Shown here: positions 4,784 through 58,748 of the stretch, in pieces | How the letters are laid out: each line of letters starts with the position of its first letter | Numbering within the stretch: the first letter of the stretch is position 1 | DNA from: Christensenellaceae bacterium | GTDB lineage: Bacteria; Bacillota; Clostridia; Christensenellales; UBA1242 | NCBI GenBank assembly: GCA_031260975.1 | Contig: JAISKJ010000003.1 | Span: 436,065-500,064, forward strand | Length of the DNA: 64,000 nucleotides | Reading direction: 5' to 3' | The notes under the pieces: generated by a model | Seen by the model: the letters and a program-made list of their open reading frames with translations, nothing else | What the model was told of the DNA's origin: nothing | Databases searched by the model: none | Translations under genes and position numbers: made by a program

Positions 4784-4799
4784 AAAAAGCATTGTAGGT

Positions 4800-4817
4800 T
4801 TGCATAATACTATGCAA
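4800..4817. repeat. palindromic repeat copy TTGCATAATACTATGCAA (perfect)
   Basis: 7-4-7 inverted repeat, identical to copies at 23025, 32782 and 32815; followed by ACTTTTTGTCGAAT flank shared with the 58685 locus. Confidence 0.9.
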
Positions 4818-4920
4818 CTTTTTGTCGAATTTTTGATAACTTATAAAAAATGATTGTAAAATAAATTAAAATGGTGTATCATAATATCATTAGTGTATAA
4901 CACAAACAAGGAGCGTTGAT

Positions 4921-21699: not shown

Positions 21700-23010
21700 T
21701 TGACTGAAGAAAAACTAAACAAAACAGTTGGATTTGTGTCGCTTGGGTGTGACAAAAACAGGGTGGATACCGAAAGCATAATAACCACTCTTTATGCTAA
21801 TGGTTTTAAAACAACAGGAAACATAAATGATGCTCAGATAATAATAATAAACACCTGTGCTTTTTTAAAGTCTGCTCGTGATGAGGCTCTTGCCACTATG
21901 CTTGAAATGCTGGATTATAAAAAGACAAGTGCCGAAAAAATAATCGTGGCAGGCTGTCTTTGTCAAATGGATGATAAGCTCAAAGAAAAGTATCCTGAGA
22001 TTGACGCTTTTATTACGCCCAAGGATTATGGCGATATTGCAAAGATAATATACGGCCTTTATGGAAAGCCTTATAAAAACTCCAACGGTGTTCCGGATTA
22101 TCGCAAAATTACAACGCCCGGGCATTTTGCATATCTTAAGATTGCCGAAGGCTGTGACAATTCCTGTAGCTATTGCACAATTCCAAAAATTAAAGGACCC
22201 TATGTCAGCGAACCTATTGAAAGTCTTGTAAAAACGGCGACGATACTTGCTGAGCAGGGAGTGAAGGAGCTCATTTTGGTGGCGCAGGATACCACAAGGT
22301 ATGGGCTTGACTTATATAAAAAACAGACTATTGCTGAGCTTTTAAAAAAGCTTAGTGAAATTAATGGTATTGAATGGATACGCTTGCATTATTGTTATCC
22401 TGAGATGCTGACGCCGGCAATAATAAACGAAATTGCGACTAACCCCAAGGTTGTAAAGTATCTGGATATTCCGTTTCAGCATGTAAGCACAAAGGTACTT
22501 AAGTCCATGAACAGAGCAGGCAACGAGCAATCTGTAAAATTGATTGTTGAAATGCTGCGCTCTAAAATTCCGGAGATAGTGCTCAGGTCCACTTTTATTG
22601 TAGGCTTTCCGGGGGAAACTAATGAGGACTTTAAACTTCTTTTGAAGTTTTTGAAGGAATATAAATTGGATGCCGTCGGCTTCTTTGCATATTCAAATGA
22701 AGAGGGAACTCCATCTTTTGAATTTGATGGGCAACTTAGTCAAAAAGAAAAGCAAAAGAGGCTGGAGGCCGCTCAGAAGATTCAAAGCAAAATTGCCTTT
22801 GAGCTAAATCAAAAGTTTATAGGCGCCACCCAAAAGGTGTTGTGCGACGGATTTGATCAGGCGAATGGCCTATATTATGGGCGTAACTATGGTAGCTCAC
22901 CGGACGTTGATTTTGTTGTGTATATAAATGGGAAATGCAGTATAGGTGATTTTGTATCAGTAAAAATTACTGATGCAACAGACGAGTATTTGATAGGGGA
23001 AATTGCATAG
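21700..23010 (+). CDS. rimO: ribosomal protein S12 methylthiotransferase RimO
   Basis: 436 aa; UPF0004 N-domain, radical-SAM CDNSCSYC, TRAM C-domain; TTG start. Confidence 0.9.
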   Translation: MTEEKLNKTVGFVSLGCDKNRVDTESIITTLYANGFKTTGNINDAQIIIINTCAFLKSARDEALATMLEMLDYKKTSAEKIIVAGCLCQMDDKLKEKYPEIDAFITPKDYGDIAKIIYGLYGKPYKNSNGVPDYRKITTPGHFAYLKIAEGCDNSCSYCTIPKIKGPYVSEPIESLVKTATILAEQGVKELILVAQDTTRYGLDLYKKQTIAELLKKLSEINGIEWIRLHYCYPEMLTPAIINEIATNPKVVKYLDIPFQHVSTKVLKSMNRAGNEQSVKLIVEMLRSKIPEIVLRSTFIVGFPGETNEDFKLLLKFLKEYKLDAVGFFAYSNEEGTPSFEFDGQLSQKEKQKRLEAAQKIQSKIAFELNQKFIGATQKVLCDGFDQANGLYYGRNYGSSPDVDFVVYINGKCSIGDFVSVKITDATDEYLIGEIA

Positions 23011-23042
23011 TATTATGCAATAGTTTGCATAATACTATGCAA
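23003..23042. repeat. two perfect palindromic repeat copies in opposite orientation (TTGCATAGTATTATGCAA tagt TTGCATAATACTATGCAA)
   Basis: 23003-23020 and 23025-23042; first copy contains the rimO stop codon. Confidence 0.92.
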
Positions 23043-31714: not shown

Positions 31715-33558
31715 TGAAAATAAACATATTAGACAGTAGCATATACAATCGAATTGCAGCGGGTGAAGTTGTTGAACGTCCTCATTCGATTGTCAAGGAG
31801 CTTGTTGAAAATAGCGTTGATTCGGGGGCTGACAGTATAATAATAGAAGTTGTGGGCGGCGGTATGCGCTCTGTGAAAGTGACTGACAACGGCAGTGGAA
31901 TTGACTTTGATGACCTGACGGCCGCATTTTTGCCGCATGCAACCAGCAAAATCAAAACAACCGACGACCTGAATTCAATCGCTACGCTGGGTTTTAGAGG
32001 TGAAGCACTTGCCAGCATCGGCTCGGTAAGTGAAATTATGTTGAGCTCCAAAACTAAAGGAGCCACTACCGGCGGTGAGGTTGAAGTAAGAGGCGGAACC
32101 ATTTCTAAACCCCATCCTAAGGGGTGCCCCGAAGGGACGCATGTTGTGGTGAATAACTTATTTTTTAATACTCCGGCCCGAGCCAAGTTTTTAAAGTCAG
32201 CCAAAACTGAAGAAAGTTATATCACCAATCTGGTTGAGCGCACAATCTTAGCCCATCCGAATATCAGTTTTAAGTATATTGTCGACGGCAAAATTGTATA
32301 TCAGACAACGGGCAAAGGCCTTGAAGAGGCGATTTATGTGATTTATGGCAAGGAAACAACGGGAAACTTAATCAGTGTAGAATATAAAAATTCTAGCCTA
32401 ACCATATCCGGTTTTGTGGGCCGACCGACTTATACTAAGCCTAATCGTACTTATCAGACGCTGGTCATAAACGGCAGGTATGTTGTTGACAGTCTTGTTT
32501 CAACGTCGGTTTTCAATGCTTTTTCGAACTATATGATGAAGGGCAGGTTCCCGTTTTTTGTTCTTTTTATAAATATGCCCTATGAGGATGTTGATGTAAA
32601 TGTTCATCCAAACAAGCTGGCTGTAAGATTTGTAAACTCCAATGGTGTGTATGTTGCGGTAAGCAATGCTGTCAGCGGCGCGTTGCTTAACGCCAACAAT
32701 ATTGTTGACGCTGTGACAACTGCTGAAAACGAGCCGATTGTGCCGATGCCAAAGGTGACGGGCAGGAGTTTTGGGGAGAGTTTGCATAATACTATGCAAA
32801 CCTTGGATGAAAAATTGCATAATACTATGCAAACAATTGACACAAAGCCCGCAGTTTCAAGTCCGATACTGCCAAATATTCCTATTACGCCTGTGGCAAC
32901 GCTAAAGGATGATGGTGGAATATATTATCAGACACTTCAGAATTATGTCAAGGCAGCTGCTCAGCCTGAAGTTTCACTTGCCGAAGGAGTTGAGGATTTT
33001 AAGATAATCGGCACAGTATTTACCACCTACATAATTGTGGAGCACAAAGGTGAAGCATATTTTATTGACCAGCACGCAGCGCACGAGCGGCTTTTGTTTG
33101 ACAAATTTTCGGCCGAATTTGAAAAGAAACAGGTTAATATCCAACAGCTGTTTGTGCCGTATGTGTTGCGGATTAATAGTGTTGAGGATGTATTTTTAAA
33201 GGAACACCTTAATGATTTTGGTGAGCTGGGCTTTGAGGTTTCGGAGTTTGGCAATCTTTCATACAAGGTTTCAAGTGTGCCGCTTAGCCTCAGTCAAATA
33301 GACCTGAGTGCATATTTTGATGACAGTCTTAAAAACCTTAACAAGCTTGGCAGCAGCGTTGAAGTCAGGCACTTTTTGGCCACAAAGGCATGCAAGGCAG
33401 CGGTCAAAGCCGGGCATGATTTAAATGGCACTGAAATTGCAACGCTGCTTAAAGAAATCAGCAAATCGGGAACAACCTTGCTTTGTCCGCACGGTAGGCC
33501 TGTTTGCGTAAGGCTTAAAAAAACCGACGTTGACAAATGGTTTAAGAGGATTGTATGA
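31714..33558 (+). CDS. mutL: DNA mismatch repair protein MutL
   Basis: 614 aa; GHKL ATPase motifs (ELVENSVDSGA, DNGSGI), C-terminal dimerisation domain (FIDQHAAHER). Confidence 0.95.
   Translation: MKINILDSSIYNRIAAGEVVERPHSIVKELVENSVDSGADSIIIEVVGGGMRSVKVTDNGSGIDFDDLTAAFLPHATSKIKTTDDLNSIATLGFRGEALASIGSVSEIMLSSKTKGATTGGEVEVRGGTISKPHPKGCPEGTHVVVNNLFFNTPARAKFLKSAKTEESYITNLVERTILAHPNISFKYIVDGKIVYQTTGKGLEEAIYVIYGKETTGNLISVEYKNSSLTISGFVGRPTYTKPNRTYQTLVINGRYVVDSLVSTSVFNAFSNYMMKGRFPFFVLFINMPYEDVDVNVHPNKLAVRFVNSNGVYVAVSNAVSGALLNANNIVDAVTTAENEPIVPMPKVTGRSFGESLHNTMQTLDEKLHNTMQTIDTKPAVSSPILPNIPITPVATLKDDGGIYYQTLQNYVKAAAQPEVSLAEGVEDFKIIGTVFTTYIIVEHKGEAYFIDQHAAHERLLFDKFSAEFEKKQVNIQQLFVPYVLRINSVEDVFLKEHLNDFGELGFEVSEFGNLSYKVSSVPLSLSQIDLSAYFDDSLKNLNKLGSSVEVRHFLATKACKAAVKAGHDLNGTEIATLLKEISKSGTTLLCPHGRPVCVRLKKTDVDKWFKRIV
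32782..32832. repeat. two perfect direct copies of the palindromic repeat, in frame inside mutL
   Basis: TTGCATAATACTATGCAAAC at 32782-32801 and 32815-32834, period 33 nt, translated LHNTMQT twice. Confidence 0.92.
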
Positions 33559-35720: not shown

Positions 35721-36314
35721 TTACAAAAATCGTATAATACCCACAACCCGTCCCAAAATTTTGACATCAAAAAAATATTGCGGAGCATATTTGTTGTTGT
35801 AGGCTTTTAACATTATATTTCCGTCCTGCCTGAAAAACCGTCTAAAAATCGGTTCATTGTTTATTACACATAAAATAATATCGCCGTTGTCGGCGTAAGT
35901 TTGTTTTTTTATTATAGCCAAGTCCCCCTTAATAATTCCGATACCTGTCATGCTGTCGCTGTCAACGCTGATTGCAAACAAATCTCCGTTAAAAAGATTG
36001 GCCGATACCTTAAAGCTTTGATTATAATAATCAAGAGACAGAGGCTTTTTAATGGTTATTTTATGGATAGTGCAAAATTGTTCGTTCAGGCTTTGTGAAT
36101 AGTCCGGTATAATTTCTATGGCACGGTTTTTATTGGTGCCTTTTCTGATTTTACCTCTTTCTTCAAGTTTTGTCAGGTAATAGAATATAGTGGAAGTTGA
36201 TTTAACATTCATTTCTTGCATAAGCTCGCGCACGGTAGGAGGATATCCATGCTCGCTAAGATGAATTTTAAGAATACGAAGGAGTTTATTTAGGGTTTCT
36301 TCTATTTTTAGCAT
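35721..36314 (-). CDS. lexA: LexA repressor (S24 peptidase)
   Basis: 197 aa; N-terminal wHTH (GYPPTVRELM), S24 domain with DSDSM serine and downstream Lys. Confidence 0.87.
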   Translation of the reverse strand: MLKIEETLNKLLRILKIHLSEHGYPPTVRELMQEMNVKSTSTIFYYLTKLEERGKIRKGTNKNRAIEIIPDYSQSLNEQFCTIHKITIKKPLSLDYYNQSFKVSANLFNGDLFAISVDSDSMTGIGIIKGDLAIIKKQTYADNGDIILCVINNEPIFRRFFRQDGNIMLKAYNNKYAPQYFFDVKILGRVVGIIRFL

Positions 36315-36324
36315 AGATTTTCTC

Positions 36325-37362
36325 CTAATTATCCCGCAGTTTCACCTTATTTGCAGCGGATTTTCGGATATCCTCACTTATGGCGGCGTAATGTTTTCGT
36401 GTGGTGTTTACGTCTTTATGCCCCAAAACATCGGCCACCATATAAATATCGCCTGTTTCACGATATAAATTTGTGCCGTATGTACTTCTTAGCTTGTGGG
36501 GTGTAATTTTTTTGAGAGGAGTGGATACCGAACTATATTTTTTTACTAATTTTTCAACAGCTCTAACGCCGATTCTTTCGTTTCGAAGCGATAGAAATAG
36601 TGCATTGTCGTCGGTTTTTTTGTTAAGCTTGCGTTTTTCAAAATATTCTCTTAAGGCATCAGCCACTTCATCCGAAAAGTATAATATTGCCTGATTTCCG
36701 CCTTTTCGCATAATTCTGAAACTATTTGCATTAAAGTCGATATCATCCAAATTTAAACCCACAAGCTCGCTTATACGAATACCTGTTCCTAAAAAAAGCG
36801 TTAAAATTGCTAAATCTCGTGTTCTGGTATGCTTATTAAATTCAAGTTGCATATGGCTGAATTTGATAGGGGCTTCGGTTTGGTCCAAAAGCTTTACCAC
36901 CTCGTCAACCTCAAGGCGGATAATTTCTTTAGTGTGAATTTTTGGCATTTCTATTTTTGTTGCAACATTGGCGTCCAGCTTATCTTTGTTAAAAAAATAT
37001 TTAAAAAGACTGCGCACTGCTGCCAACTTGCGTGCCTTTGCCTTGTCGTTATTCTGAATTTTTTTGCCGTTATGCTCATAAAAACTCAGATATGATAAAA
37101 ACTTTTCAATATTTGAAGAGGTGACTGCATTTAGGTGCTTAAGTTCGAGCTCGGTAATCCGAAAGTTGTCGAATTTGGGAAGTTTTTTTACTAAAAAGTC
37201 AAAAAAAATGCCCAGATCCCTCGCATAGTTTATTCGAGTAAGAGGGGTGGTCCGGCTTTCAATACCTATGAAAAAGTCTTCGCAAAATTCGGGAAGCTCA
37301 CCCATGATGTTGTCTAGAGCTTGCGTATTTTTTTCGTTGCGTTCGACAAAATAATTACTCAC
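36325..37362 (-). CDS. tyrosine site-specific recombinase, XerC/XerD-like
   Basis: 345 aa; SAM-like N-domain, catalytic R..HKLR..LGHKDVNTTRKHY; GTG start; co-oriented 10 nt upstream of lexA. Confidence 0.85.
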   Translation of the reverse strand: MSNYFVERNEKNTQALDNIMGELPEFCEDFFIGIESRTTPLTRINYARDLGIFFDFLVKKLPKFDNFRITELELKHLNAVTSSNIEKFLSYLSFYEHNGKKIQNNDKAKARKLAAVRSLFKYFFNKDKLDANVATKIEMPKIHTKEIIRLEVDEVVKLLDQTEAPIKFSHMQLEFNKHTRTRDLAILTLFLGTGIRISELVGLNLDDIDFNANSFRIMRKGGNQAILYFSDEVADALREYFEKRKLNKKTDDNALFLSLRNERIGVRAVEKLVKKYSSVSTPLKKITPHKLRSTYGTNLYRETGDIYMVADVLGHKDVNTTRKHYAAISEDIRKSAANKVKLRDN

Positions 37363-37544: not shown

Positions 37545-37573
37545 TTGACATTTTTGGCAGGGAATATTATAAT
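37545..37573 (+). promoter_or_regulatory. consensus sigma-A promoter of serS (TTGACA-17-TATAAT)
   Basis: -35 at 37545-50, -10 at 37568-73. Confidence 0.75.
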
Positions 37574-37578
37574 ATAAA

Positions 37579-37596
37579 TTGCATAATGCTGTGCAA
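37579..37596. repeat. palindromic repeat copy, 2 mismatches (TTGCATAATGCTGTGCAA)
   Basis: Starts about 6 nt after the serS -10 box, at the predicted transcript 5' end. Confidence 0.8.
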
Positions 37597-39939: not shown

Positions 39940-40087
39940 AGCGAGCCCTTAACAATACAAAAAAATAAAAGCAAAGTTTTTGAAGTTCTTTAATAACATA
40001 TTAGGCAGAATAAAAATAAAAAAACAAATATAAACACACAAATTCGTTTTTTGCATAGCACCACTGTTTTCAGGCAAAAATACCCAT

Positions 40088-40121
40088 ATCTATTCGCAAA
40101 AGCTGTCTTTTGCGAATAGAT
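40088..40121. other. perfect 15-bp hairpin ATCTATTCGCAAAAG-CTGT-CTTTTGCGAATAGAT
   Basis: Read directly; lies between convergent genes; arm resembles the ATTCGACAAAAA module. Confidence 0.7.
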
Positions 40122-40186
40122 TATGTAGGCCCCATTTTGGCCCTTCTTTTAACCTCTTTTCTAAAAAAACAACCTTTTTTAACAAA

Positions 40187-40235
40187 AATATTCGACAAAA
40201 AAGCGGTGTCTTTCACCGCCCTTTTGTCGAATATT
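40187..40235. other. nested long hairpin (14-bp outer stem AATATTCGACAAAA, inner GCGGTG-TCTTT-CACCGC)
   Basis: Read directly; T-run follows on the minus strand, so possibly the terminator of the DUF45 gene. Confidence 0.65.
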
Positions 40236-40321: not shown

Positions 40322-41035
40322 TCACCTATAAATCCCAAGCAGAAAGTTGTTGCGTTTGAGTGTGAGACGTGCCTGCTTCCAGCCTGGCATGAGGCGCTCA
40401 AGCACTGCATAAAACTTTTGCGAATGGTTCATCTCATATGTGTGGCTAAGCTCATGCAGAATTACATAATCAATGACATTGTGCGGCAGCATTACAAGCC
40501 GCCAATTTAATTTGATATTCTTATTTGTATCACAACTACCCCATTTTGCTTTAAAGTCGCCGATTTTCAGGCTTTTATAACCTATCCCGTGCGTCTTCCC
40601 AAGCGTCTCAAGCCGTTTGGTAAGTATTTCCGCCCCTAGTGCCCTTTGCCATTTCAATAAGTGTTTTATGTATGAGCCTTCTATATAATATTTATTTGGC
40701 ACGATTACCTGATTTTTTTCAATTGTTATTGTCTTTGTGTCGCCGGCGGTGATGTCATAAAGCGTTCCGCACACTGAAATTTGTTTAAAGTTGATTATGG
40801 TTTGATGGTCAATATTCACCTGTGCTATCTGCTGCATCTTTTTTTCAATCCATTTGGCTTTTTGATTTATGATTTCACCAAGCCGTTGAGTATTCATTTT
40901 TATGGGTGCAAAAACCACCAGCTTTCCGTGGGTGTCTATGGTTATCTTAACGCTTCTGCGACGCTCACGCAGAATGTCGGCGATATCTATTAAGTTTTGC
41001 ATAGTATTATTCAAACTTTGCATAGTATTATTCAA
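40322..41035 (-). CDS. YgjP-like/DUF45 family metal-dependent hydrolase (HExxH)
   Basis: HELSHTYEMNHSQKFY zinc motif, RRSVKITIDTHGKLVVFAP N-region; start ambiguous (TTG 41035, ATG 41023 or ATG 41002), all inside repeat copies. Confidence 0.8.
   Translation of the reverse strand: MNNTMQSLNNTMQNLIDIADILRERRRSVKITIDTHGKLVVFAPIKMNTQRLGEIINQKAKWIEKKMQQIAQVNIDHQTIINFKQISVCGTLYDITAGDTKTITIEKNQVIVPNKYYIEGSYIKHLLKWQRALGAEILTKRLETLGKTHGIGYKSLKIGDFKAKWGSCDTNKNIKLNWRLVMLPHNVIDYVILHELSHTYEMNHSQKFYAVLERLMPGWKQARLTLKRNNFLLGIYR
40997..41035. repeat. two direct palindromic repeat copies, 1 mismatch each (TTGCATAGTATTATTCAA), period 21 nt
   Basis: 40997-41014 and 41018-41035; encode NNTMQ twice on the minus strand. 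Confidence 0.85.
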
Positions 41036-41084: not shown

Positions 41085-41096
41085 TTGCATAGTATT
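41085..41096. repeat. half copy of the palindromic repeat (TTGCATAGTATT)
   Basis: Ends 3 nt before the -35 box of the PadR-like gene promoter. Confidence 0.6.
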
Positions 41097-41099
41097 TTA

Positions 41100-41128
41100 T
41101 TGACTTTTTTGCCTTTTTTTTGTATAAT
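41100..41128 (+). promoter_or_regulatory. consensus promoter of PadR-like gene (TTGACT-17-TATAAT, TG-extended)
   Basis: -35 at 41100-05, -10 at 41123-28; SD AAGAGGG then ATG 41147. Confidence 0.7.
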
Positions 41129-42913: not shown

Positions 42914-42982
42914 CATTTTCTTGTCATATCGGTATTTACATAATAAAACGCGTGTGATATAATATCATAAAATGGGGTGCCT

Positions 42983-43972
42983 ATGAAAGTTAATTTAGAG
43001 GTAAAGAACCTTACCAAAACATTTGGATCCAGGACTGCCGTGAATAATGTCTCCTTTGAGGTTTTTGAAGGAGAGATTTTCGGTTTTCTTGGCCCGAATG
43101 GCGCCGGAAAAACTACCGTTCTTCGCATGGTTTGCGGCCTTGCCGCTCCCACCTCGGGCGATGCTATAATTTGCGGACACTCCATCAAAAAAGAATTTGA
43201 AAAAGCCATCATAAATGTTGGCGGAATTATTGAAAACCCTGAAATGTATAAAAATTTTTCAGGACTTGAAAATTTAAAGTATTATGCCAGCCTATATAAA
43301 GACATTGACAAAGACCGTATAAATCAGGTTGTTGAGCTTGTGGGTCTTAAAGACAGAATGAAAGATAAAATAAAGACCTACTCTCTCGGAATGAAGCAGC
43401 GCATAGGCATTGCTCAGGCGCTTTTGCACAGGCCTAAACTGTTGATACTTGACGAGCCCACCAATGGTCTTGACCCCAGCGGTGTTATTGATATGCGAAA
43501 ATTCCTCACCAAGCTTGCCAAAGCCGAAGGCATATCAATCCTTATCTCAAGCCACGGTCTTGCTGAAATGGAGCTTATTTGCGACACAATCGGCATCATC
43601 GACCGGGGCGTGTTGGTTAGCATCCGCAGCGTTGCCGACATGACCAAAGGGGGTGCTCCGAGAATTCAGATAACGGTTAACTTCCCCAACTACGCAGGAA
43701 AGCTGCTGTTTGAAAAATATGAAACGCTTGACAGCATAACTCTTGAAGATAATACCCTGACAGTTGGGCTTCCTATTGAAGAAGTGCCCGAGATAACAAA
43801 CTATCTGGTAAAAAAAGGACTGCGGATTTATTCAATTACTTCAACGGTAAAGACCTTGGAAGAGGCTTTTTTAGAAACCATTGAAAATGAGCGGCTTTCT
43901 TTTGGAAATCAGGACAGACTTACCTATCAGACAACCACAACTACAACGACCACAACGGGAACGACAAGATAG
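42983..43972 (+). CDS. ABC transporter ATP-binding protein (C-terminal poly-Thr tail)
   Basis: Walker A GPNGAGKTT, signature YSLGMKQR, Walker B LLILDEPT; ends TYQTTTTTTTTTGTTR. Confidence 0.92.
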   Translation: MKVNLEVKNLTKTFGSRTAVNNVSFEVFEGEIFGFLGPNGAGKTTVLRMVCGLAAPTSGDAIICGHSIKKEFEKAIINVGGIIENPEMYKNFSGLENLKYYASLYKDIDKDRINQVVELVGLKDRMKDKIKTYSLGMKQRIGIAQALLHRPKLLILDEPTNGLDPSGVIDMRKFLTKLAKAEGISILISSHGLAEMELICDTIGIIDRGVLVSIRSVADMTKGGAPRIQITVNFPNYAGKLLFEKYETLDSITLEDNTLTVGLPIEEVPEITNYLVKKGLRIYSITSTVKTLEEAFLETIENERLSFGNQDRLTYQTTTTTTTTTGTTR

Positions 43973-44046
43973 AAAACAAAAAACTGAACAATTCTGCAGT
44001 AAATACTTAATGGGACATTACTGCCACAATAAATAAGGAGAAAAGT

Positions 44047-45831
44047 ATGTTTAAATTATTTAGAGGAGAGCTTCGAAAAATAATATTGCGGCCCGGCATA
44101 TATATTATGACAGCTCTTTTGGTGCTGGTGCTGATACTTGCTCCTATGATTTTTAAGCCCTCTGCGCGAACAGATGCGCTTCCTGTAATTGACGGCACAA
44201 CAGTGTCGGCTCACAACAGTTATTTTAGCGTAAACATAAAACCAGAGCGCGACCAAAGTCTGACGGACAGGGTTATTATTGCCGAAGATATTTTGAGCAA
44301 CCCCGCCCGAAATGTGGTCTATGACAACATTCTGTCATATTTTGTACGCCCTGTTGTTGACACTATAAACCCTGTTACGCTAAAAGATTTTTACGGCAAG
44401 TTTGAAGGAATTATGGGCACCTTGCCTTTGGATATCACTTCGGTGAGAACTGAGCTTGAAAGTGCGGTTTTGGGCATGAAAAACAGTGCTAACACGCTTT
44501 CAAACAAATATTCCGAAACTGTCACCAGCATAACTCCCCTCGTTTTGGTGTCAAAGGAAACCAACGAGCAAATAAGAAGTGTGCTTGAAGGGCTTATTCA
44601 AAGACTTAATGTTTTTAGTGCTGGTGTGCAGGACCGTATAGACTATATCAACCTGCGGGCAAACCTTATTGACTTTGGGTATATCCGTGACCTTGACACA
44701 CACTTTGTAAACGTAAAAAATATAGAATACGATAACCAGATGCTGCAGCAGATTTATGAGGACTATTATGTCGGCGTGCCTGCTCATTTGACTGATTTAA
44801 ACAATGAAATATTGGCACTTGCTCTAGGTGTTCCTAGTGACCCAGCGGCTCAGGCTCAGGGTAAAATAGATATAGACGAAAAAATTTGGGCTTATGCTGC
44901 CCTTTCAAAAAACACAACCAGAATTTTGGATAATGCTATTATGCTGAGTGCCGCCGCAGGCAAAAGTGACGCTGAAATGAGCGGATATATCGGCTTTGAA
45001 AACTTTAATAATTATCAACGAACAGAAGAACTGACCAAATACAAATTTCTTTTTGACAACGATAAGGCCGAATATGACTATGCAAATGTGTTTGCGTTTG
45101 GCAGGAACAGTGATTTTTATACCAACGCATATGACTTTATATATTTTGTGCTTGAAATTTTTGCTTTTGTAATAATTGCTTATGGTGTGGTGCTTGGTGC
45201 CGGAATGATTGCAGGTGAGCAAAGCAGCGGTACAATCAAACTGCTTGCCATAAGGCCATATAATCGCGGCAAAATAATGTGCTCCAAAATGATGGCTGCT
45301 TTCTTCTTTGTGACATTGTTTACTGTGCTGTCAACCATCATAGCTATTATAGCCTCACTGTTTATATACGGAACAGGCGCGCTGGCTTCACTTCCGGTGC
45401 TTGTAATATTCAATGCAACTCTGCCCTTTACGCTAAACGCCTGGGTGCTGCTGCTTATATATCTTGCTGCTTTGATTATAAAGGCGTGGATATTTGTGCT
45501 GCTGGCTTTTGCGATTTCTACGTTGTTTAAGTCTCATGTGGGTGCCGTAATTATCTCAGTTCTTCTATATTTGATAAGTATGGTAATAACCTTTGTGGCG
45601 GCGGGTGCAAATTGGCTTAAGTATGTGATATTCAGCAACCTTGACTTCTTTAAGTATTTCGGAGGCTCGTTTATAAATCAGTATCGGTCGGGCGAAACCT
45701 TTACTAACCTGTTTATAAATCCCGTGTTTGCCGACACTACCATAATCTATACTTCAGTTGTTGTCGTAGGCTTGCTGCTGCTTCTAAATATTATAACCTT
45801 TGCAACATTTAAGCACAGGGATATAACATAA
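44047..45831 (+). CDS. ABC-2 type permease with about 330-aa extracytoplasmic domain
   Basis: 594 aa; one N-terminal TM, large soluble region, five or more C-terminal TM helices; follows the ATPase. Confidence 0.7.
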   Translation: MFKLFRGELRKIILRPGIYIMTALLVLVLILAPMIFKPSARTDALPVIDGTTVSAHNSYFSVNIKPERDQSLTDRVIIAEDILSNPARNVVYDNILSYFVRPVVDTINPVTLKDFYGKFEGIMGTLPLDITSVRTELESAVLGMKNSANTLSNKYSETVTSITPLVLVSKETNEQIRSVLEGLIQRLNVFSAGVQDRIDYINLRANLIDFGYIRDLDTHFVNVKNIEYDNQMLQQIYEDYYVGVPAHLTDLNNEILALALGVPSDPAAQAQGKIDIDEKIWAYAALSKNTTRILDNAIMLSAAAGKSDAEMSGYIGFENFNNYQRTEELTKYKFLFDNDKAEYDYANVFAFGRNSDFYTNAYDFIYFVLEIFAFVIIAYGVVLGAGMIAGEQSSGTIKLLAIRPYNRGKIMCSKMMAAFFFVTLFTVLSTIIAIIASLFIYGTGALASLPVLVIFNATLPFTLNAWVLLLIYLAALIIKAWIFVLLAFAISTLFKSHVGAVIISVLLYLISMVITFVAAGANWLKYVIFSNLDFFKYFGGSFINQYRSGETFTNLFINPVFADTTIIYTSVVVVGLLLLLNIITFATFKHRDIT

Positions 45832-48453: not shown

Positions 48454-48912
48454 TTATGTCAGTTTTGTCAAATCGCTTTTAAATTTCTCACTTTCTTTTA
48501 CGGCGATTTTATCGCACTTGTTGTTATACTCATTGTCAGCGTGGCCCTTAACTTTCACAAATCTTACAGTGTGTTTCCTTGTTAAATTTAAAAGTTCTTC
48601 CCACAAATCCTGATTGAGCACGGGCTTTTTGTTTGCGCTTCTCCATCCGTTTAAAACCCAGCCGGATATCCAATCTTGCAAAAACGCATTGCACACATAA
48701 GCTGAGTCTGTATATAATTTTACCGCACAAGGTTCTTTCAGCGCGCTCAACCCTTCAATGGCTCCCTTTAGCTCCATGCGGTTGTTGGTGGTGGCACGCT
48801 CCCCTCCTGACAAAACCTTTTCTTTTTTTCCATATAACAAAATTGCACACCAGCCACCGGGGCCGGGGTTTCCGCTACACGCTCCGTCTGTATAAATTTC
48901 TACTTGCTTCAT
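48454..48912 (-). CDS. rnhA: ribonuclease HI
   Basis: 152 aa; IYTDGACSGNPGPGGW, NNRMEL, HADNEYNNKCD motifs. Confidence 0.93.
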   Translation of the reverse strand: MKQVEIYTDGACSGNPGPGGWCAILLYGKKEKVLSGGERATTNNRMELKGAIEGLSALKEPCAVKLYTDSAYVCNAFLQDWISGWVLNGWRSANKKPVLNQDLWEELLNLTRKHTVRFVKVKGHADNEYNNKCDKIAVKESEKFKSDLTKLT

Positions 48913-49104: not shown

Positions 49105-49935
49105 ATGAAATTTTGTGACAGTCACAGTGATTGCCTGACTTTTTATAGCATTGAAAATGCCGCTCAATATCTTAAAAGTTATAAAACAAAAAACATAAAA
49201 ACACTTTGCTGTGCCGTGTTTACAAGTGAGCTGAAAGAAGACCCGCTTTTATATATTGAAGCCGCGGCAGCCCAAATAAAGGCGTTAAATTCAGGACATA
49301 AATTTATTATTTACGGTGAAGACTGCAGTTTTTTGACAAAAAGCAACCTAAAAACTTTGATAGATTTGCGTCCTGTTTCATGCGGGCTCACATGGCATTT
49401 TGACAATAGTCTTGCCGGAGGCGACGAGGGACACGGAGATATCACTCCGTTTGGAACTGAAGTCATAAAAACTCTGGAGCAAAATAACATTTTTATAGAT
49501 ACTGCTCATCTCAACCGTAAATCTTTTTATCAGGTTTGCGGGCTTTCAAAAAAACCTATTTACAACTCTCACTGCGGCGTATATAAGTTTTGCCGCAACA
49601 AACGGAACTTGACCGACCAACAGATTAAATATATTTTTGATACAAACGGTTTTATGGGTATTTATCTTGTTTCATATTTGTTGAGCAAAAAGCATTGTTC
49701 CGTTAGGACTGTTGCTGAGCATTTTGATTATGTAATAAGAAAATTCGGATATAAAAATGTAGGCTTAGGCACGGATTTTTTTGGCACAAAAAACCTGCCC
49801 GCACGTGCGACGGGCTATGATGATTTGCATTTGATTTTAAAAGAACTGAAAGACATGGGACATTCGCGCAAAATAATAAAACATATTGCTCATAAAAACT
49901 ATACTGATTTTTTAAAACGCAGCGGATTATTGTGA
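49105..49935 (+). CDS. membrane dipeptidase (M19 family)-like protein
   Basis: 276 aa; CDSHSDCL, DTAHLN, GLGTDFFG motifs resembling the renal dipeptidase family. Confidence 0.7.
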   Translation: MKFCDSHSDCLTFYSIENAAQYLKSYKTKNIKTLCCAVFTSELKEDPLLYIEAAAAQIKALNSGHKFIIYGEDCSFLTKSNLKTLIDLRPVSCGLTWHFDNSLAGGDEGHGDITPFGTEVIKTLEQNNIFIDTAHLNRKSFYQVCGLSKKPIYNSHCGVYKFCRNKRNLTDQQIKYIFDTNGFMGIYLVSYLLSKKHCSVRTVAEHFDYVIRKFGYKNVGLGTDFFGTKNLPARATGYDDLHLILKELKDMGHSRKIIKHIAHKNYTDFLKRSGLL

Positions 49936-50751
49936 GCTATCTTTATATTTATATAGGATGGCGGGTCTGAACCCTCCGGTTTTATATATGCCCAATGACT
50001 GAGCCTTGTTTTTTATCTTTCGCTGAAAATTGGCCTTACTGAGTTTTTTGTCTAGTATAGCTTCATACACTTGTTTTAGTTCAGCCATAGTAAATTGTTT
50101 TTCCAGCATACTGAAAGCAATATCAGTATATTCCAGCTTATTTCTTATTCTGTTGAGGCCATAGAAGATTACTTTGGCGTGGTCAAATGCAAGATTCTTG
50201 GCTTCTGTCATAATTATGCTGCCGTTGTCTGTTTTTATTTTTGCTTTGATAACTACTCCGTTTTCACCCTCAAGCGTCATTTCACACACGCCGTCAGAAG
50301 CTGTCGGTGAGGTTTTTAATGTAAACCATGAAGTTTTATTGCTGTCATCATTGAGACTTGTTCTTTTTTTGTTTATCAGCCCCACATAAGAAATTGACAA
50401 TACTCTGGTTCGGGGGTCTCTGTCAACATCTCCAAAGGTGTAAAGTTGCTCAAGATACATATCCTTTATTTTAGTTTTGTTTTTCAGGCATCTGATTGAA
50501 GCGTCTTCAAGTGCTTCATTCAGCCTGACAAATGTGCCGGGTAAACTCCATAGGTCAATATATGGGTGCTCATCTCTTTTGACAAGCAAAACCTGAAGTT
50601 TTTTTTCACCGAGTTTTCGGATATTATTATTTTCCGTTTCATCAATAGCAAACAATAAATTGTCAACCGCCACCGACGGTCTTTCAAAATCGGTTATTTT
50701 ATATTGTTTTAAAAACTCTGCTTCGGTTAATCCGTTTTTATCTTTTTTCAT
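49927..50751 (-). CDS. nrtR: NrtR-like Nudix-related transcriptional regulator
   Basis: 274 aa; N-terminal Nudix fold plus C-terminal wHTH (FTMAELKQVYEAIL...ANFQRKI); adjacent to nadE-nadV-prs. Confidence 0.75.
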   Translation of the reverse strand: MKKDKNGLTEAEFLKQYKITDFERPSVAVDNLLFAIDETENNNIRKLGEKKLQVLLVKRDEHPYIDLWSLPGTFVRLNEALEDASIRCLKNKTKIKDMYLEQLYTFGDVDRDPRTRVLSISYVGLINKKRTSLNDDSNKTSWFTLKTSPTASDGVCEMTLEGENGVVIKAKIKTDNGSIIMTEAKNLAFDHAKVIFYGLNRIRNKLEYTDIAFSMLEKQFTMAELKQVYEAILDKKLSKANFQRKIKNKAQSLGIYKTGGFRPAILYKYKDSSQ

Positions 50752-58568: not shown

Positions 58569-58696
58569 AAATTTAGTTTTCTCCTTAAATTTGCTTTAGA
58601 GCCGATAAAATCGGCGAAAATTTCGTCTCTTTTTTTGAGCGATAGGTATATCATACAATAAATTTAGTTTTAAAGTCAATTAAAATTCGACAAAAA

Positions 58697-58746
58697 TTGC
58701 ATAATCTTTGCATAGTATTATGCAAAAGTTTGCACAGTACTATGCA
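58697..58746. repeat. palindromic repeat cluster: half copy plus one perfect plus one 2-mismatch copy
   Basis: TTGCATAAT 58697-705; TTGCATAGTATTATGCAA 58708-25; TTGCACAGTACTATGCAA 58729-46; preceded by ATTCGACAAAAA 58685-96. Confidence 0.9.
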
Positions 58747-58748
58747 AT

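Follow-up and report, generated by a model that had tools for sequence, protein, structure and literature searches.

A Dispersed Palindrome in a Christensenellaceae Genome as a Probable Operator for a PadR-Family Regulator

The 64-kb stretch of Christensenellaceae DNA analyzed here (the window; contig JAISKJ010000003.1) carries housekeeping and DNA-repair genes, among them rplT, ruvCAB, yajC, secDF, recJ, pnp, ftsK, rimO, cinA, recA, mutSL, miaA, lexA, serS, leuS, rny, ppa, thiI, iscS, and pheT. Scattered between and within these genes are copies of an 18-bp palindrome, TTGCATA-ATAC-TATGCAA, and near 41 kb lies a gene for a membrane-anchored PadR-family protein, here called PadR-TM. The palindrome is most likely a known kind of element—a PadR-family operator—in an uncharacterized form, not a selfish repeat. 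On the sequence comparisons below, we put at roughly 60% the probability that it serves as operator for a dimeric PadR-family winged-helix regulator, with PadR-TM as the most probable binder.

The Palindrome and Its Copies in the Window

The window contains ten full copies of the palindrome—six perfect and four with one or two mismatches—and three half copies, where about 0.2 copies would be expected (Table 1). Scanning with up to three mismatches returned 19 strand-matches against 0.20 expected, a number equaled in none of 100 dinucleotide shuffles; an earlier sequence-only reading, which counted 13 full or partial copies far beyond chance, is borne out. Its coordinates hold for every copy but one, which lies at 58730–58747 rather than 58729–58746, and the half copies that it placed at 40051, 41085, and 58697 were confirmed. 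A weight matrix of 22 nt, built from 52 sites that all belong to other genomes, picked out exactly the ten full sites in the window and nothing else, with scores of 19–32 and none between 9 and 19; shuffled sequence gave 0.4 matches at scores of 9 or above.

Stacked in a common orientation, the ten full copies agree over the 18-mer and, weakly, over A.tTT on its 3′ side, with nothing in common farther out. The 3′ flank AAC(TTTT) described earlier is conserved in this weak form. The ATAC center is one base off the GTAC-centered consensus found across genomes, and the ATAC variant lies on the sense strand of the local genes in 8 of 9 asymmetric copies. Noncoding DNA makes up 11% of the window, and eight of the ten copies fall within that fraction or at its edge. 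The earlier account of placement needs qualification: The copies at 32782 and 32815 are not intergenic but lie inside mutL, in frame, and those at 40997 and 41018 overlap the start of a DUF45 gene.

Table 1. Copies of the palindrome, the candidate regulator gene, and its neighbors, in window coordinates
Feature	Position	Strand	Context
Perfect copy TTGCATAATACTATGCAA, ATAC on + strand	4800..4817	+	starts 17 nt past ruvB stop; ends 16 nt before predicted yajC −35 box TTGATA at 4833
Pair of perfect copies, 22 bp apart	23003–23020 (GTAT on + strand) and 23025–23042 (ATAC on + strand)	+	first overlaps rimO stop; second ends 27 nt 5′ of cinA ATG
Two perfect copies, 33 bp apart, in frame within mutL	32782..32832 (32782–32799 and 32815–32832, both ATAC on + strand)	+	each codes LHNTMQ
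Copy with two mismatches, TTGCATAATGCTGTGCAA	37579..37596	+	begins 5 nt after −10 box of a perfect TTGACA-17-TATAAT promoter, 37545–37573
Half copy TTGCATAGCAC	40051..40061	+	opens block conserved in loci L171 and L178 that leads into dif-like palindrome
DUF45/YgjP-like zinc metallopeptidase gene	40322..41002	−	divergent from PadR-TM gene
Two copies with 1–2 mismatches, 21 bp apart, TTGAATAATACTATGCAA on minus strand	40997..41035 (40997–41014 and 41018–41035)	−	overlap start of DUF45/YgjP-like metallopeptidase gene
Half-site TTGCATAGTATT	41085..41096	+	immediately 5′ of −35 box of PadR-TM promoter TTGACT-17-TATAAT at 41100–41128 (11/12 match)
Candidate regulator gene PadR-TM, 588 aa	41147..42913	+	PadR winged-helix domain by Pfam
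ABC transporter ATPase and ABC-2 permease genes	42977..45831	+	immediately 3′ of PadR-TM gene
Three-site cluster: full copy with center GTAC (one mismatch to GTAC palindrome), perfect copy 22 bp off (GTAT on + strand), half copy	58697..58747 (58730–58747, 58708–58725, and 58697–58705)	−	downstream of thiI stop, upstream of ppa promoter (−35 box at 58679)

Several copies stand in close relation to predicted expression signals. The serS copy covers the predicted transcription start region and ends 6 nt before a GGAGG ribosome-binding site and 15 nt before the serS ATG. No sigma-70-like promoter was predicted in the region of the rimO–cinA pair (23003..23042), whose junction at 23015–23030 reads ATGCAA-TAGT-TTGCAT. 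The mutL copies sit in a disordered linker between Pfam domains at aa 208–324 and aa 432–570; their 33-nt units have the same 18-mer and differ at 7 of the remaining 15 nt. The pair at the DUF45 gene start has an orthologous counterpart in locus L178. In the window, the probable start codon of the DUF45 gene is an ATG (41002) inside the second palindrome copy, lacking a Shine–Dalgarno sequence. The sole promoter-like hexamers here, TTGAAT-18-AATAAT, are supplied by the two copies and stop 4 nt 5′ of this start, so the mRNA may be leaderless.

Occurrence in Other Genomes

Across genomes, the family consensus is the perfect palindrome TTGCATAGTACTATGCAA, with a GTAC center. The motif is found in many genomes of Christensenellales and other Clostridia, over 27–58% GC, frequently paired and at orthologous places. 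The sequence-only reading had named confinement to the window as grounds for giving up the element; relatives carry it. The exact ATAC 18-mer had 41 matches, all single, in 596 Gb of GTDB representative genomes—a set that excludes the source species—where about 17 would arise by chance under uniform composition. A metagenome scan with TTGCATARTAYTATGCAA gave at least 120 loci, and when mismatches are allowed, many Clostridia loci hold two to four copies within a few kilobases. Eight single matches in a viral scan were uninformative, and locus L001, being 100% identical to the window, carries no population information.

Where copies are paired, their spacing varies (21, 22, 23, 24, 27, 28, 33, or 36 bp), and hence the single palindrome is the unit. 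This variation bears directly on the idea that an alternative sigma factor uses the 22-bp pairs as promoters. Two of them, 23003/23025 and 58730/58708, have the sequence GCATA-N18-CATAATA, like promoters of forespore sigma-G/F; the sigma-G consensus resembles this arrangement, and relatives encode the sporulation proteins YunB and SpoVA. Spacing of 21–36 bp across genomes nevertheless rules out a pair-formed promoter, whether of sigma-A or of sigma-G/F-like type; single copies and half-sites are conserved as well, and perfect dyad symmetry is not a promoter feature. We consider the sigma-factor explanation highly improbable.

Eleven loci, obtained through PadR-gene homologues or from the scans, are syntenic with 29–63 kb of the window. 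In most of them, the intergenic region between the DUF45 and PadR genes carries the motif or half of it. Other recurrent positions are 3′ of a CD_NTase_C-like gene and around lexA, the integrase gene, and a methionine gamma-lyase gene (L014, L050, L135, L155, and L171–L173). The motif also stands 5′ of cinA in L110, 5′ of ligA in L054 and L119, 5′ of dac, which encodes a D-Ala-D-Ala carboxypeptidase, in the syntenic genomes L011, L013, and L019, and directly before ybaB-recR (L079) and ridA (L012 and L144).

Copies in the mutL linker recur in the same reading frame in L100 and L103. These encode LHSSMQ/LHSTMQ (L100:433–471 and L103:1063–1101), against LHNTMQ twice in the window; the loci represent a distant relative, at about 33–43% MutL identity, and closer relatives lack linker copies. 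The pattern suggests that the mutL copies were gained independently in the same tolerant region upstream of miaA.

A unit of 18–22 bp, kept in sequence over this range of GC content and at orthologous positions, indicates a recognition site rather than a selfish repeat. A REP/MITE-like element spreading in this genome, one of the roles offered earlier, would account for the six dispersed copies that are identical down to the off-consensus ATAC center, for their presence in tolerant places (intergenic regions and the mutL linker), and for the visible local tandem duplications of 21- and 33-nt units. However, sharing between copies ends at about 22 bp, neither terminal repeats nor target duplications accompany them, the window's ORFs include no transposase, of the Y1 type or any other, and the motif occupies orthologous positions in many genera, unlike species-specific REPs. 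The two standard forms of such repeats fare no better. A REP/BIME element with a RAYT is contradicted by sharing of the motif across genomes of 27–58% GC, by the two copies inside mutL, and by the lack of a transposase gene in the window. A MITE or IS remnant, which would exceed about 50 bp and bring terminal inverted repeats and a target duplication, is contradicted by information content that falls to background beyond the 18-mer and its 4-nt flank. We consider a selfish origin very improbable.

The same conservation weighs on an RNA reading, in which the palindrome would act as a 7–10-bp hairpin in 5′ leaders or between genes, serving mRNA stability, attenuation, termination, or processing. 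Copies fold at −6 to −10.6 kcal/mol; many lie right before a ribosome-binding site (cinA, serS, ridA, and ybaB) or just past a stop codon and are followed by AACTTTT; 8 of 9 asymmetric copies share one orientation relative to transcription; and the variants at 37579 and 58730 keep their pairing through G–U on the sense strand. Yet the recurrent TTGAATA variant loses a stem G–C pair (−0.9 kcal/mol, z = 0.2) and is kept in the window, L172, L173, and L178, half-sites alone are kept at fixed promoter positions, and the sequence itself, beyond its pairing, is conserved over 27–58% GC. The stem has just two G–C pairs, a terminator scan flagged no copy, Rfam had nothing at the copies, and some copies lie 5′ of −35 boxes and are hence untranscribed from that promoter. 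An intrinsic terminator or structured 5′ leader would call for a stable hairpin, compensatory change, and a U tract, and this combination was not found. The 5′-untranslated-region stem-loop that the sequence-only reading had also offered is accordingly very unlikely.

Four marine metagenome contigs of about 47% GC (L052, L058, L102, and L118) carry a different dispersed palindrome, T[TC]GCATAATATTATGC[AG]A, with A/T runs on either side. It occurs up to four times within three mismatches of the GTAC palindrome in 6.6 kb (L052), in a context unrelated to that of the Clostridial motif, and these contigs were set aside as carrying a different repeat.

The Candidate Regulator PadR-TM and Its Neighbors

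PadR-TM combines an LmrR-like PadR-s2 winged helix (aa 16–107), an acidic low-complexity linker (aa ~101–430), and four hydrophobic helices (~452–581). The linker, about 330 aa long with 21% D+E, aligns poorly between homologues. The DNA-binding domain is nearest to LmrR-type PadR-s2 structures (E ~1e-19; PDB 3F8B and others). The C-terminal domain matches no Pfam family, even at E = 1; one homologue, P0106, has a match to DUF1129, of the HAAS superfamily. This membrane domain forms a family of about 209 clusters at 50% identity and is almost always C-terminal in proteins of 400–800 aa. PadR-TM, the probable regulator, belongs to an uncharacterized membrane-anchored PadR subfamily.

Pairing of the DUF45 and PadR-TM genes is kept in 12 of 12 loci carrying PadR-TM. 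The ABC transporter genes probably form one operon with PadR-TM and are a likely local target. In an alignment of the PadR-TM promoter from eight genomes, with 29–76% protein identity, the sequence T.GCATA.TA just 5′ of the −35 box varies no more than does TTGAC within that box.

Proposed Operator Function

The palindrome shows three features expected of a PadR-type operator. First, the palindrome has the right geometry: T-TGCA-TAGTACTA-TGCA-A, or TGCA-N8-TGCA, follows the 4-N8-4 layout of PadR sites, with cores about 12 bp apart center to center. Second, PadR-family genes are its neighbors. Among 169 loci chosen solely for containing the motif, five have the start of a PadR-family gene 26–128 nt downstream of it, in three unrelated lineages, and in each lineage an exact palindrome covers part of a PadR promoter. 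In two Coriobacteriia species, upstream of a 105-aa PadR, the promoter TTGACA-17-TAGTAT puts the motif center at the −10 box; at L114, upstream of a PadR-TM homologue, it is the −35 box that coincides with the motif (TTGCAT-17-TATAAT); a small PadR of Porphyromonadaceae makes up the third lineage. The motif thus lies in or over the promoter of a PadR-family gene in L114, in the Coriobacteriia, and, as a half-site, in the window, the arrangement expected under autoregulation. Third, site and regulator are conserved together in most genomes (eight aligned promoters), not in all. The LmrR-like DNA-binding domain of PadR-TM and the published PadR operators compared below point to the PadR family as well. 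The operator role, one of the possibilities raised by the sequence-only reading, is supported in this way and can be narrowed, on sequence grounds, to a putative PadR-family operator with a candidate regulator inside the window.

The sites, how well they are conserved, and where they lie with respect to predicted promoters and PadR genes are observed; from these we infer a scheme of binding, binder, sign of regulation, and signal. The two monomers of a PadR dimer would each contact an arm, TTGCAT(A), whose TGCA core lies 12 bp from that of the other arm, and pairs spaced 21–22 bp, or two helical turns, could be bound cooperatively on one face of the helix. At serS, a site over the +1 of a consensus promoter would repress by occlusion, and at the DUF45 gene, the site would cover both the promoter and the likely start codon. 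The half-site set against the −35 box of the PadR-TM promoter would permit autoregulation of either sign; at yajC and ppa, the sites would act from upstream of the −35 box. At cinA, ridA, and ybaB, sites occupy the gap that separates the ribosome-binding site from the stop codon of the preceding gene; there the bound protein could repress a promoter located within that gene, or otherwise control it, or could stop read-through as a roadblock. Membrane anchoring, a long flexible linker, and the neighboring ABC exporter together suggest that an envelope or drug signal may control DNA binding, much as in LmrR–LmrCD. Alternatively, the divergently encoded DUF45 metallopeptidase could release the DNA-binding domain of PadR-TM.

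Several observations weigh against this interpretation. The putative regulon (cinA-recA, mutL, serS, ppa, yajC, ligA, ybaB-recR, ridA, and dac) has no obvious common theme or link to an ABC exporter, and several sites lie 3′ of genes or within coding sequence. Many sites in relatives are half-sites in direct repeat, which is odd for a symmetric dimer: GTACTATGCAAAC occurs two to four times after the CD_NTase_C-like gene, and L179 carries GTACTATGCAAACT four times with a period of about 45 nt at that place. A symmetric operator leaves the bias toward ATAC on the sense strand (8 of 9 copies) unexplained. The half-site layout is unlike that of AphA (N6 here against N4 between everted hexamers), the enrichment of PadR neighbors comes from three independent lineages, and in three PadR-TM genomes (L174, L175, and L179), the PadR-TM promoter lacks the motif despite the same recognition helix.

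The intergenic region after the CD_NTase_C-like gene is itself prone to repeats. At L179:8580–8730, it holds three to four half-sites TACTATGCAAACT about 43–46 nt apart, and at L174:8860–8935, AAACGAAATCTAATCAAA four times ahead of a stretch of N.

The three promoters lacking a site also lend something to the possibility that the sites, which do behave as operators, belong to another regulator—a PadR paralogue or a member of another winged-helix family—with PadR-TM a mere member of the regulon. The site is kept, however, at the PadR-TM promoter in eight genomes, and PadR genes independently adjoin the motif in three lineages. Other regulators of the window do not fit either: The LexA box is a separate element in relatives, and no copy lies near the NrtR-like gene. 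The spacing of the ARG box differs, and no arginine gene occurs in about 25 contexts. We regard a different cognate regulator as unlikely.

Named regulators were compared with the palindrome one by one. It does not match the LexA box GAAC-N4-GTTC/GTTT, and relatives carry a distinct canonical CAAACATTTGTTCGAA 5′ of lexA, in L172 beside a motif copy. The neighborhoods of lexA, recA, and ruvCAB in the window yielded no canonical LexA box; in the region 35721–37362, lexA follows only 10 nt after an integrase-family gene, at a junction where relatives have a 90–150-nt spacer with CAAACATTTGTTCGAA. The ARG box consensus is TGAAT-N4-ATTCA, against TGCAT-N6-ATGCA here, which together with the missing arginine genes rejects ArgR. 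An NrtR box is ruled out by spacing and regulon content. The NrtR-type regulator gene itself (Nudix plus NrtR winged helix; 49927–50751, minus strand) lies beside nadE and a nicotinate phosphoribosyltransferase gene, has no palindrome copy, and is part of an ordinary NAD regulon module.

A Spo0A-box-like sequence accompanies some copies. The 15-mer TTTTTGTCGAATTTT, containing TGTCGAA, lies between palindrome and −35 box at yajC (4819–4833, plus strand) and at ppa (58682–58696, minus strand). On the 3′ side of the DUF45 gene (40189–40233), the Spo0A-like box also makes up both arms of a hairpin whose stem measures 20 bp, and TTTGTCGAA occurs 5 times against 0.8 expected. The 15-mer flanks the yajC and ppa copies in this genome only, not in relatives, and was treated as separate from the palindrome.

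The Replication Terminus and a dif-Like Site

GC skew changes sign near 48 kb, with a cumulative maximum at 48467 and a plateau from about 40 kb, and the window therefore spans the replication terminus. About 8 kb from the maximum, at 40090–40119, lies a single-copy palindrome of 11-6-11 layout, CTA-TTCGCAAAA-GCTGTC-TTTTGCGAA-TAG. It is present in 14 genomes, this one included, with conserved arms and a variable 6-bp center; the other copies lie at L171:3669, L172:9060, L173:9100, L174:9101, L175:1603, L176:8869, L177:9045, L178:450, L179:9073, L180:39, L050:6938, L135:1964, and L155:3112. This palindrome has the look of a chromosomal dif site on which one XerS/XerH-like recombinase would act alone. 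The obvious candidate for the enzyme is the product of the conserved 345-aa integrase-family gene beside lexA (36325–37362); in L050 and L135, the dif-like site adjoins this gene.

Microviridae-like prophages (Phage_F capsid, Chlamy_scaf, and REP_ORF2-G2P) lie right beside the dif-like site at L171:3744–9134 and L175:1716–8836, between the CD_NTase_C-like and DUF45 genes. In L171, a degenerate second copy of the dif-like palindrome (8576) marks the other end of the prophage, an arrangement that Xer-mediated (IMEX-like) integration would leave. A conserved block of about 75 nt, TTGCATAGCACCACTGTTTTCAGGCAAAAATACCC, runs into the dif-like palindrome in the window (40051–40125), at L171:3636–3710, and at L178:~405–480. 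It has no Rfam match and could be an accessory sequence of the recombination site or a small RNA.

The TTGCATA palindrome is not itself a Xer/dif site. Its right arm CTATGCAAACT resembles the XerD arm of B. subtilis, TTATGTAAACT, but its arms would be 2 bp apart, the motif is multicopy, and the single-copy 11-6-11 site exists separately.

Unpaired half-sites tend to face the dif-like site. When the window is taken together with ten syntenic loci, 21 of 22 half-sites to its left read TAYTATGCA on the plus strand, and 15 of 17 to its right read TGCATARTA; the half-site GTACTATGCAAAC thus points at the dif-like site from both sides. The site at the PadR-TM promoter obeys this rule and not one based on gene direction.

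One explanation built around this convergence would make the sites architectural or polar elements of the terminus instead of gene operators, possibly bound by PadR-TM, that serve as markers, anchors, or polar signals to forks or translocases in the manner of RTP/Ter, MatP/matS, or XerD-binding sites. The skew switch and the conserved single-copy dif-like palindrome fall within the window, the half-sites converge on that palindrome, and the most conserved positions are the two intergenic regions flanking it. The regulator gene adjoins the terminus and has sites in its own promoter; B. subtilis rtp has the same arrangement. Among the matches listed, about 40% of the distinct multisite gene contexts from metagenomes correspond to orthologues of the 64-kb region, a comparison that is biased. 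Against these points, polarity is confounded with gene direction, and of about 14 independent positions, 11 obey the rule and 3 do not. Full sites are near-perfect palindromes and so poor polar signals, sites also stand by genes usually far from the terminus (ybaB-recR, truB-ribF, and purB), and small PadR genes of other phyla appear to use the same palindrome as an ordinary operator that overlaps their promoters. On balance, we regard a terminus role for the sites as unlikely. Quite unlikely, too, is the specific form in which PadR-TM is not, or not only, a gene regulator but a membrane-tethered terminus protein whose polar sites converge on the dif-like site.

Implications

The PadR-operator interpretation turns an anonymous repeat into a testable regulon for uncharacterized one-component regulators that join a PadR domain, a very long acidic linker, and a four-helix membrane anchor. 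The PadR-TM family is found in Christensenellales, gut bacteria for which genetic tools are scarce and hardly any regulation has been mapped. Should the proposed binding be real, an envelope-anchored sensor would be tied to recombination and repair genes (cinA-recA, mutL, ligA, ybaB-recR, and lexA) as well as housekeeping genes, and a defined operator would become available for synthetic control in Christensenellales. Convergence of the half-sites on the newly noticed dif-like site could point to a role in terminus biology. Were the terminus role to prove right, PadR-TM might anchor or organize the terminus at the membrane through its ~330-aa flexible linker, or form a polar barrier to forks or translocases, and Clostridia would then possess a functional counterpart of MatP/matS or RTP/Ter based on a PadR fold.

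Comparison with Known Systems

RTP/Ter of Bacillus subtilis and MatP/matS of E. coli pair a winged-helix or dimeric protein with dispersed dyad sites around the terminus, as would PadR-TM if it binds as proposed. RTP also shares the gene at the terminus with sites in its own promoter and an orientation that is polar around the terminus. No sequence relationship to PadR-TM was detected, RTP being absent among the PDB matches, and here sites also stand at genes normally far from the terminus.

The sequence-only reading recognized no described motif. Exact 12–14-mers of the palindrome do not occur in the searchable literature, and to that extent the statement holds; its hexamers, however, are those published for AphA, and its 4-N8-4 spacing is the classical PadR geometry, in which the site is ATGT-N8-ACAT (PMC4517056; PMC5428041).

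The DNA-binding domain of PadR-TM is closest to that in the LmrR–lmrCD system of Lactococcus lactis, a PadR-s2 repressor with an ABC exporter next door. Also in common are autoregulation at the regulator's own promoter (predicted here) and an inverted-repeat operator whose 4-bp cores are separated by about 12 bp. LmrR, at 116 aa, is soluble and has a ligand pocket at the dimer interface, whereas PadR-TM consists of the domain, the ~330-aa acidic linker, and four transmembrane helices. The cores also differ (ATGT/ACAT against TGCA), as does the reach of the sites, which here extend over housekeeping and DNA-repair genes rather than the transporter alone.

Another relevant system is AphA of Vibrio, whose ChIP-seq consensus is ATGCAA-N4-TTGCAT, with cooperative pairs and sites over transcription starts (PMC6855506). 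The two have in common the hexamers TTGCAT/ATGCAA, sites over transcription starts and in neighboring coding sequence, a dispersed regulon, and cooperative binding to adjacent sites—known for AphA, proposed here. The order and spacing are different: TTGCAT-N6-ATGCAA here is not an AphA-type site. The AphA arrangement appears only at the junctions of 22-bp-spaced pairs, where 23015–23030 is a 12/12 match to its consensus, and because pair spacing varies, we regard this match as secondary. AphA is, moreover, a soluble PadR-s1 protein distant from PadR-TM (E 9e-4).

The PadR-s2 autoregulator cdPadR1 of Clostridioides difficile binds repeats containing GTACTAT, has about 200 predicted genomic sites, and many of these lie within ORFs or between convergent genes (PMC5050560). 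Its boxes contain GTACTAT(G), as do those described here, but the motif itself, TACT-N11-12-AGTA around an AT-rich core, differs from the 18-bp TGCA palindrome, and cdPadR1 is soluble.

In the HAAS–PadR-like wHTH dyads, a PadR winged helix works with a membrane-associated signaling partner, and such dyads have been put forward as a substitute for two-component systems (PMC11237479). No PspC or Toastrack partner was found near PadR-TM, and its C-terminal domain has no Pfam match. The dyads and PadR-TM alike couple a PadR winged helix to the membrane, in the dyads within envelope-stress signaling (PSP/Lia context); what the dyads encode separately is fused to the regulator in PadR-TM.

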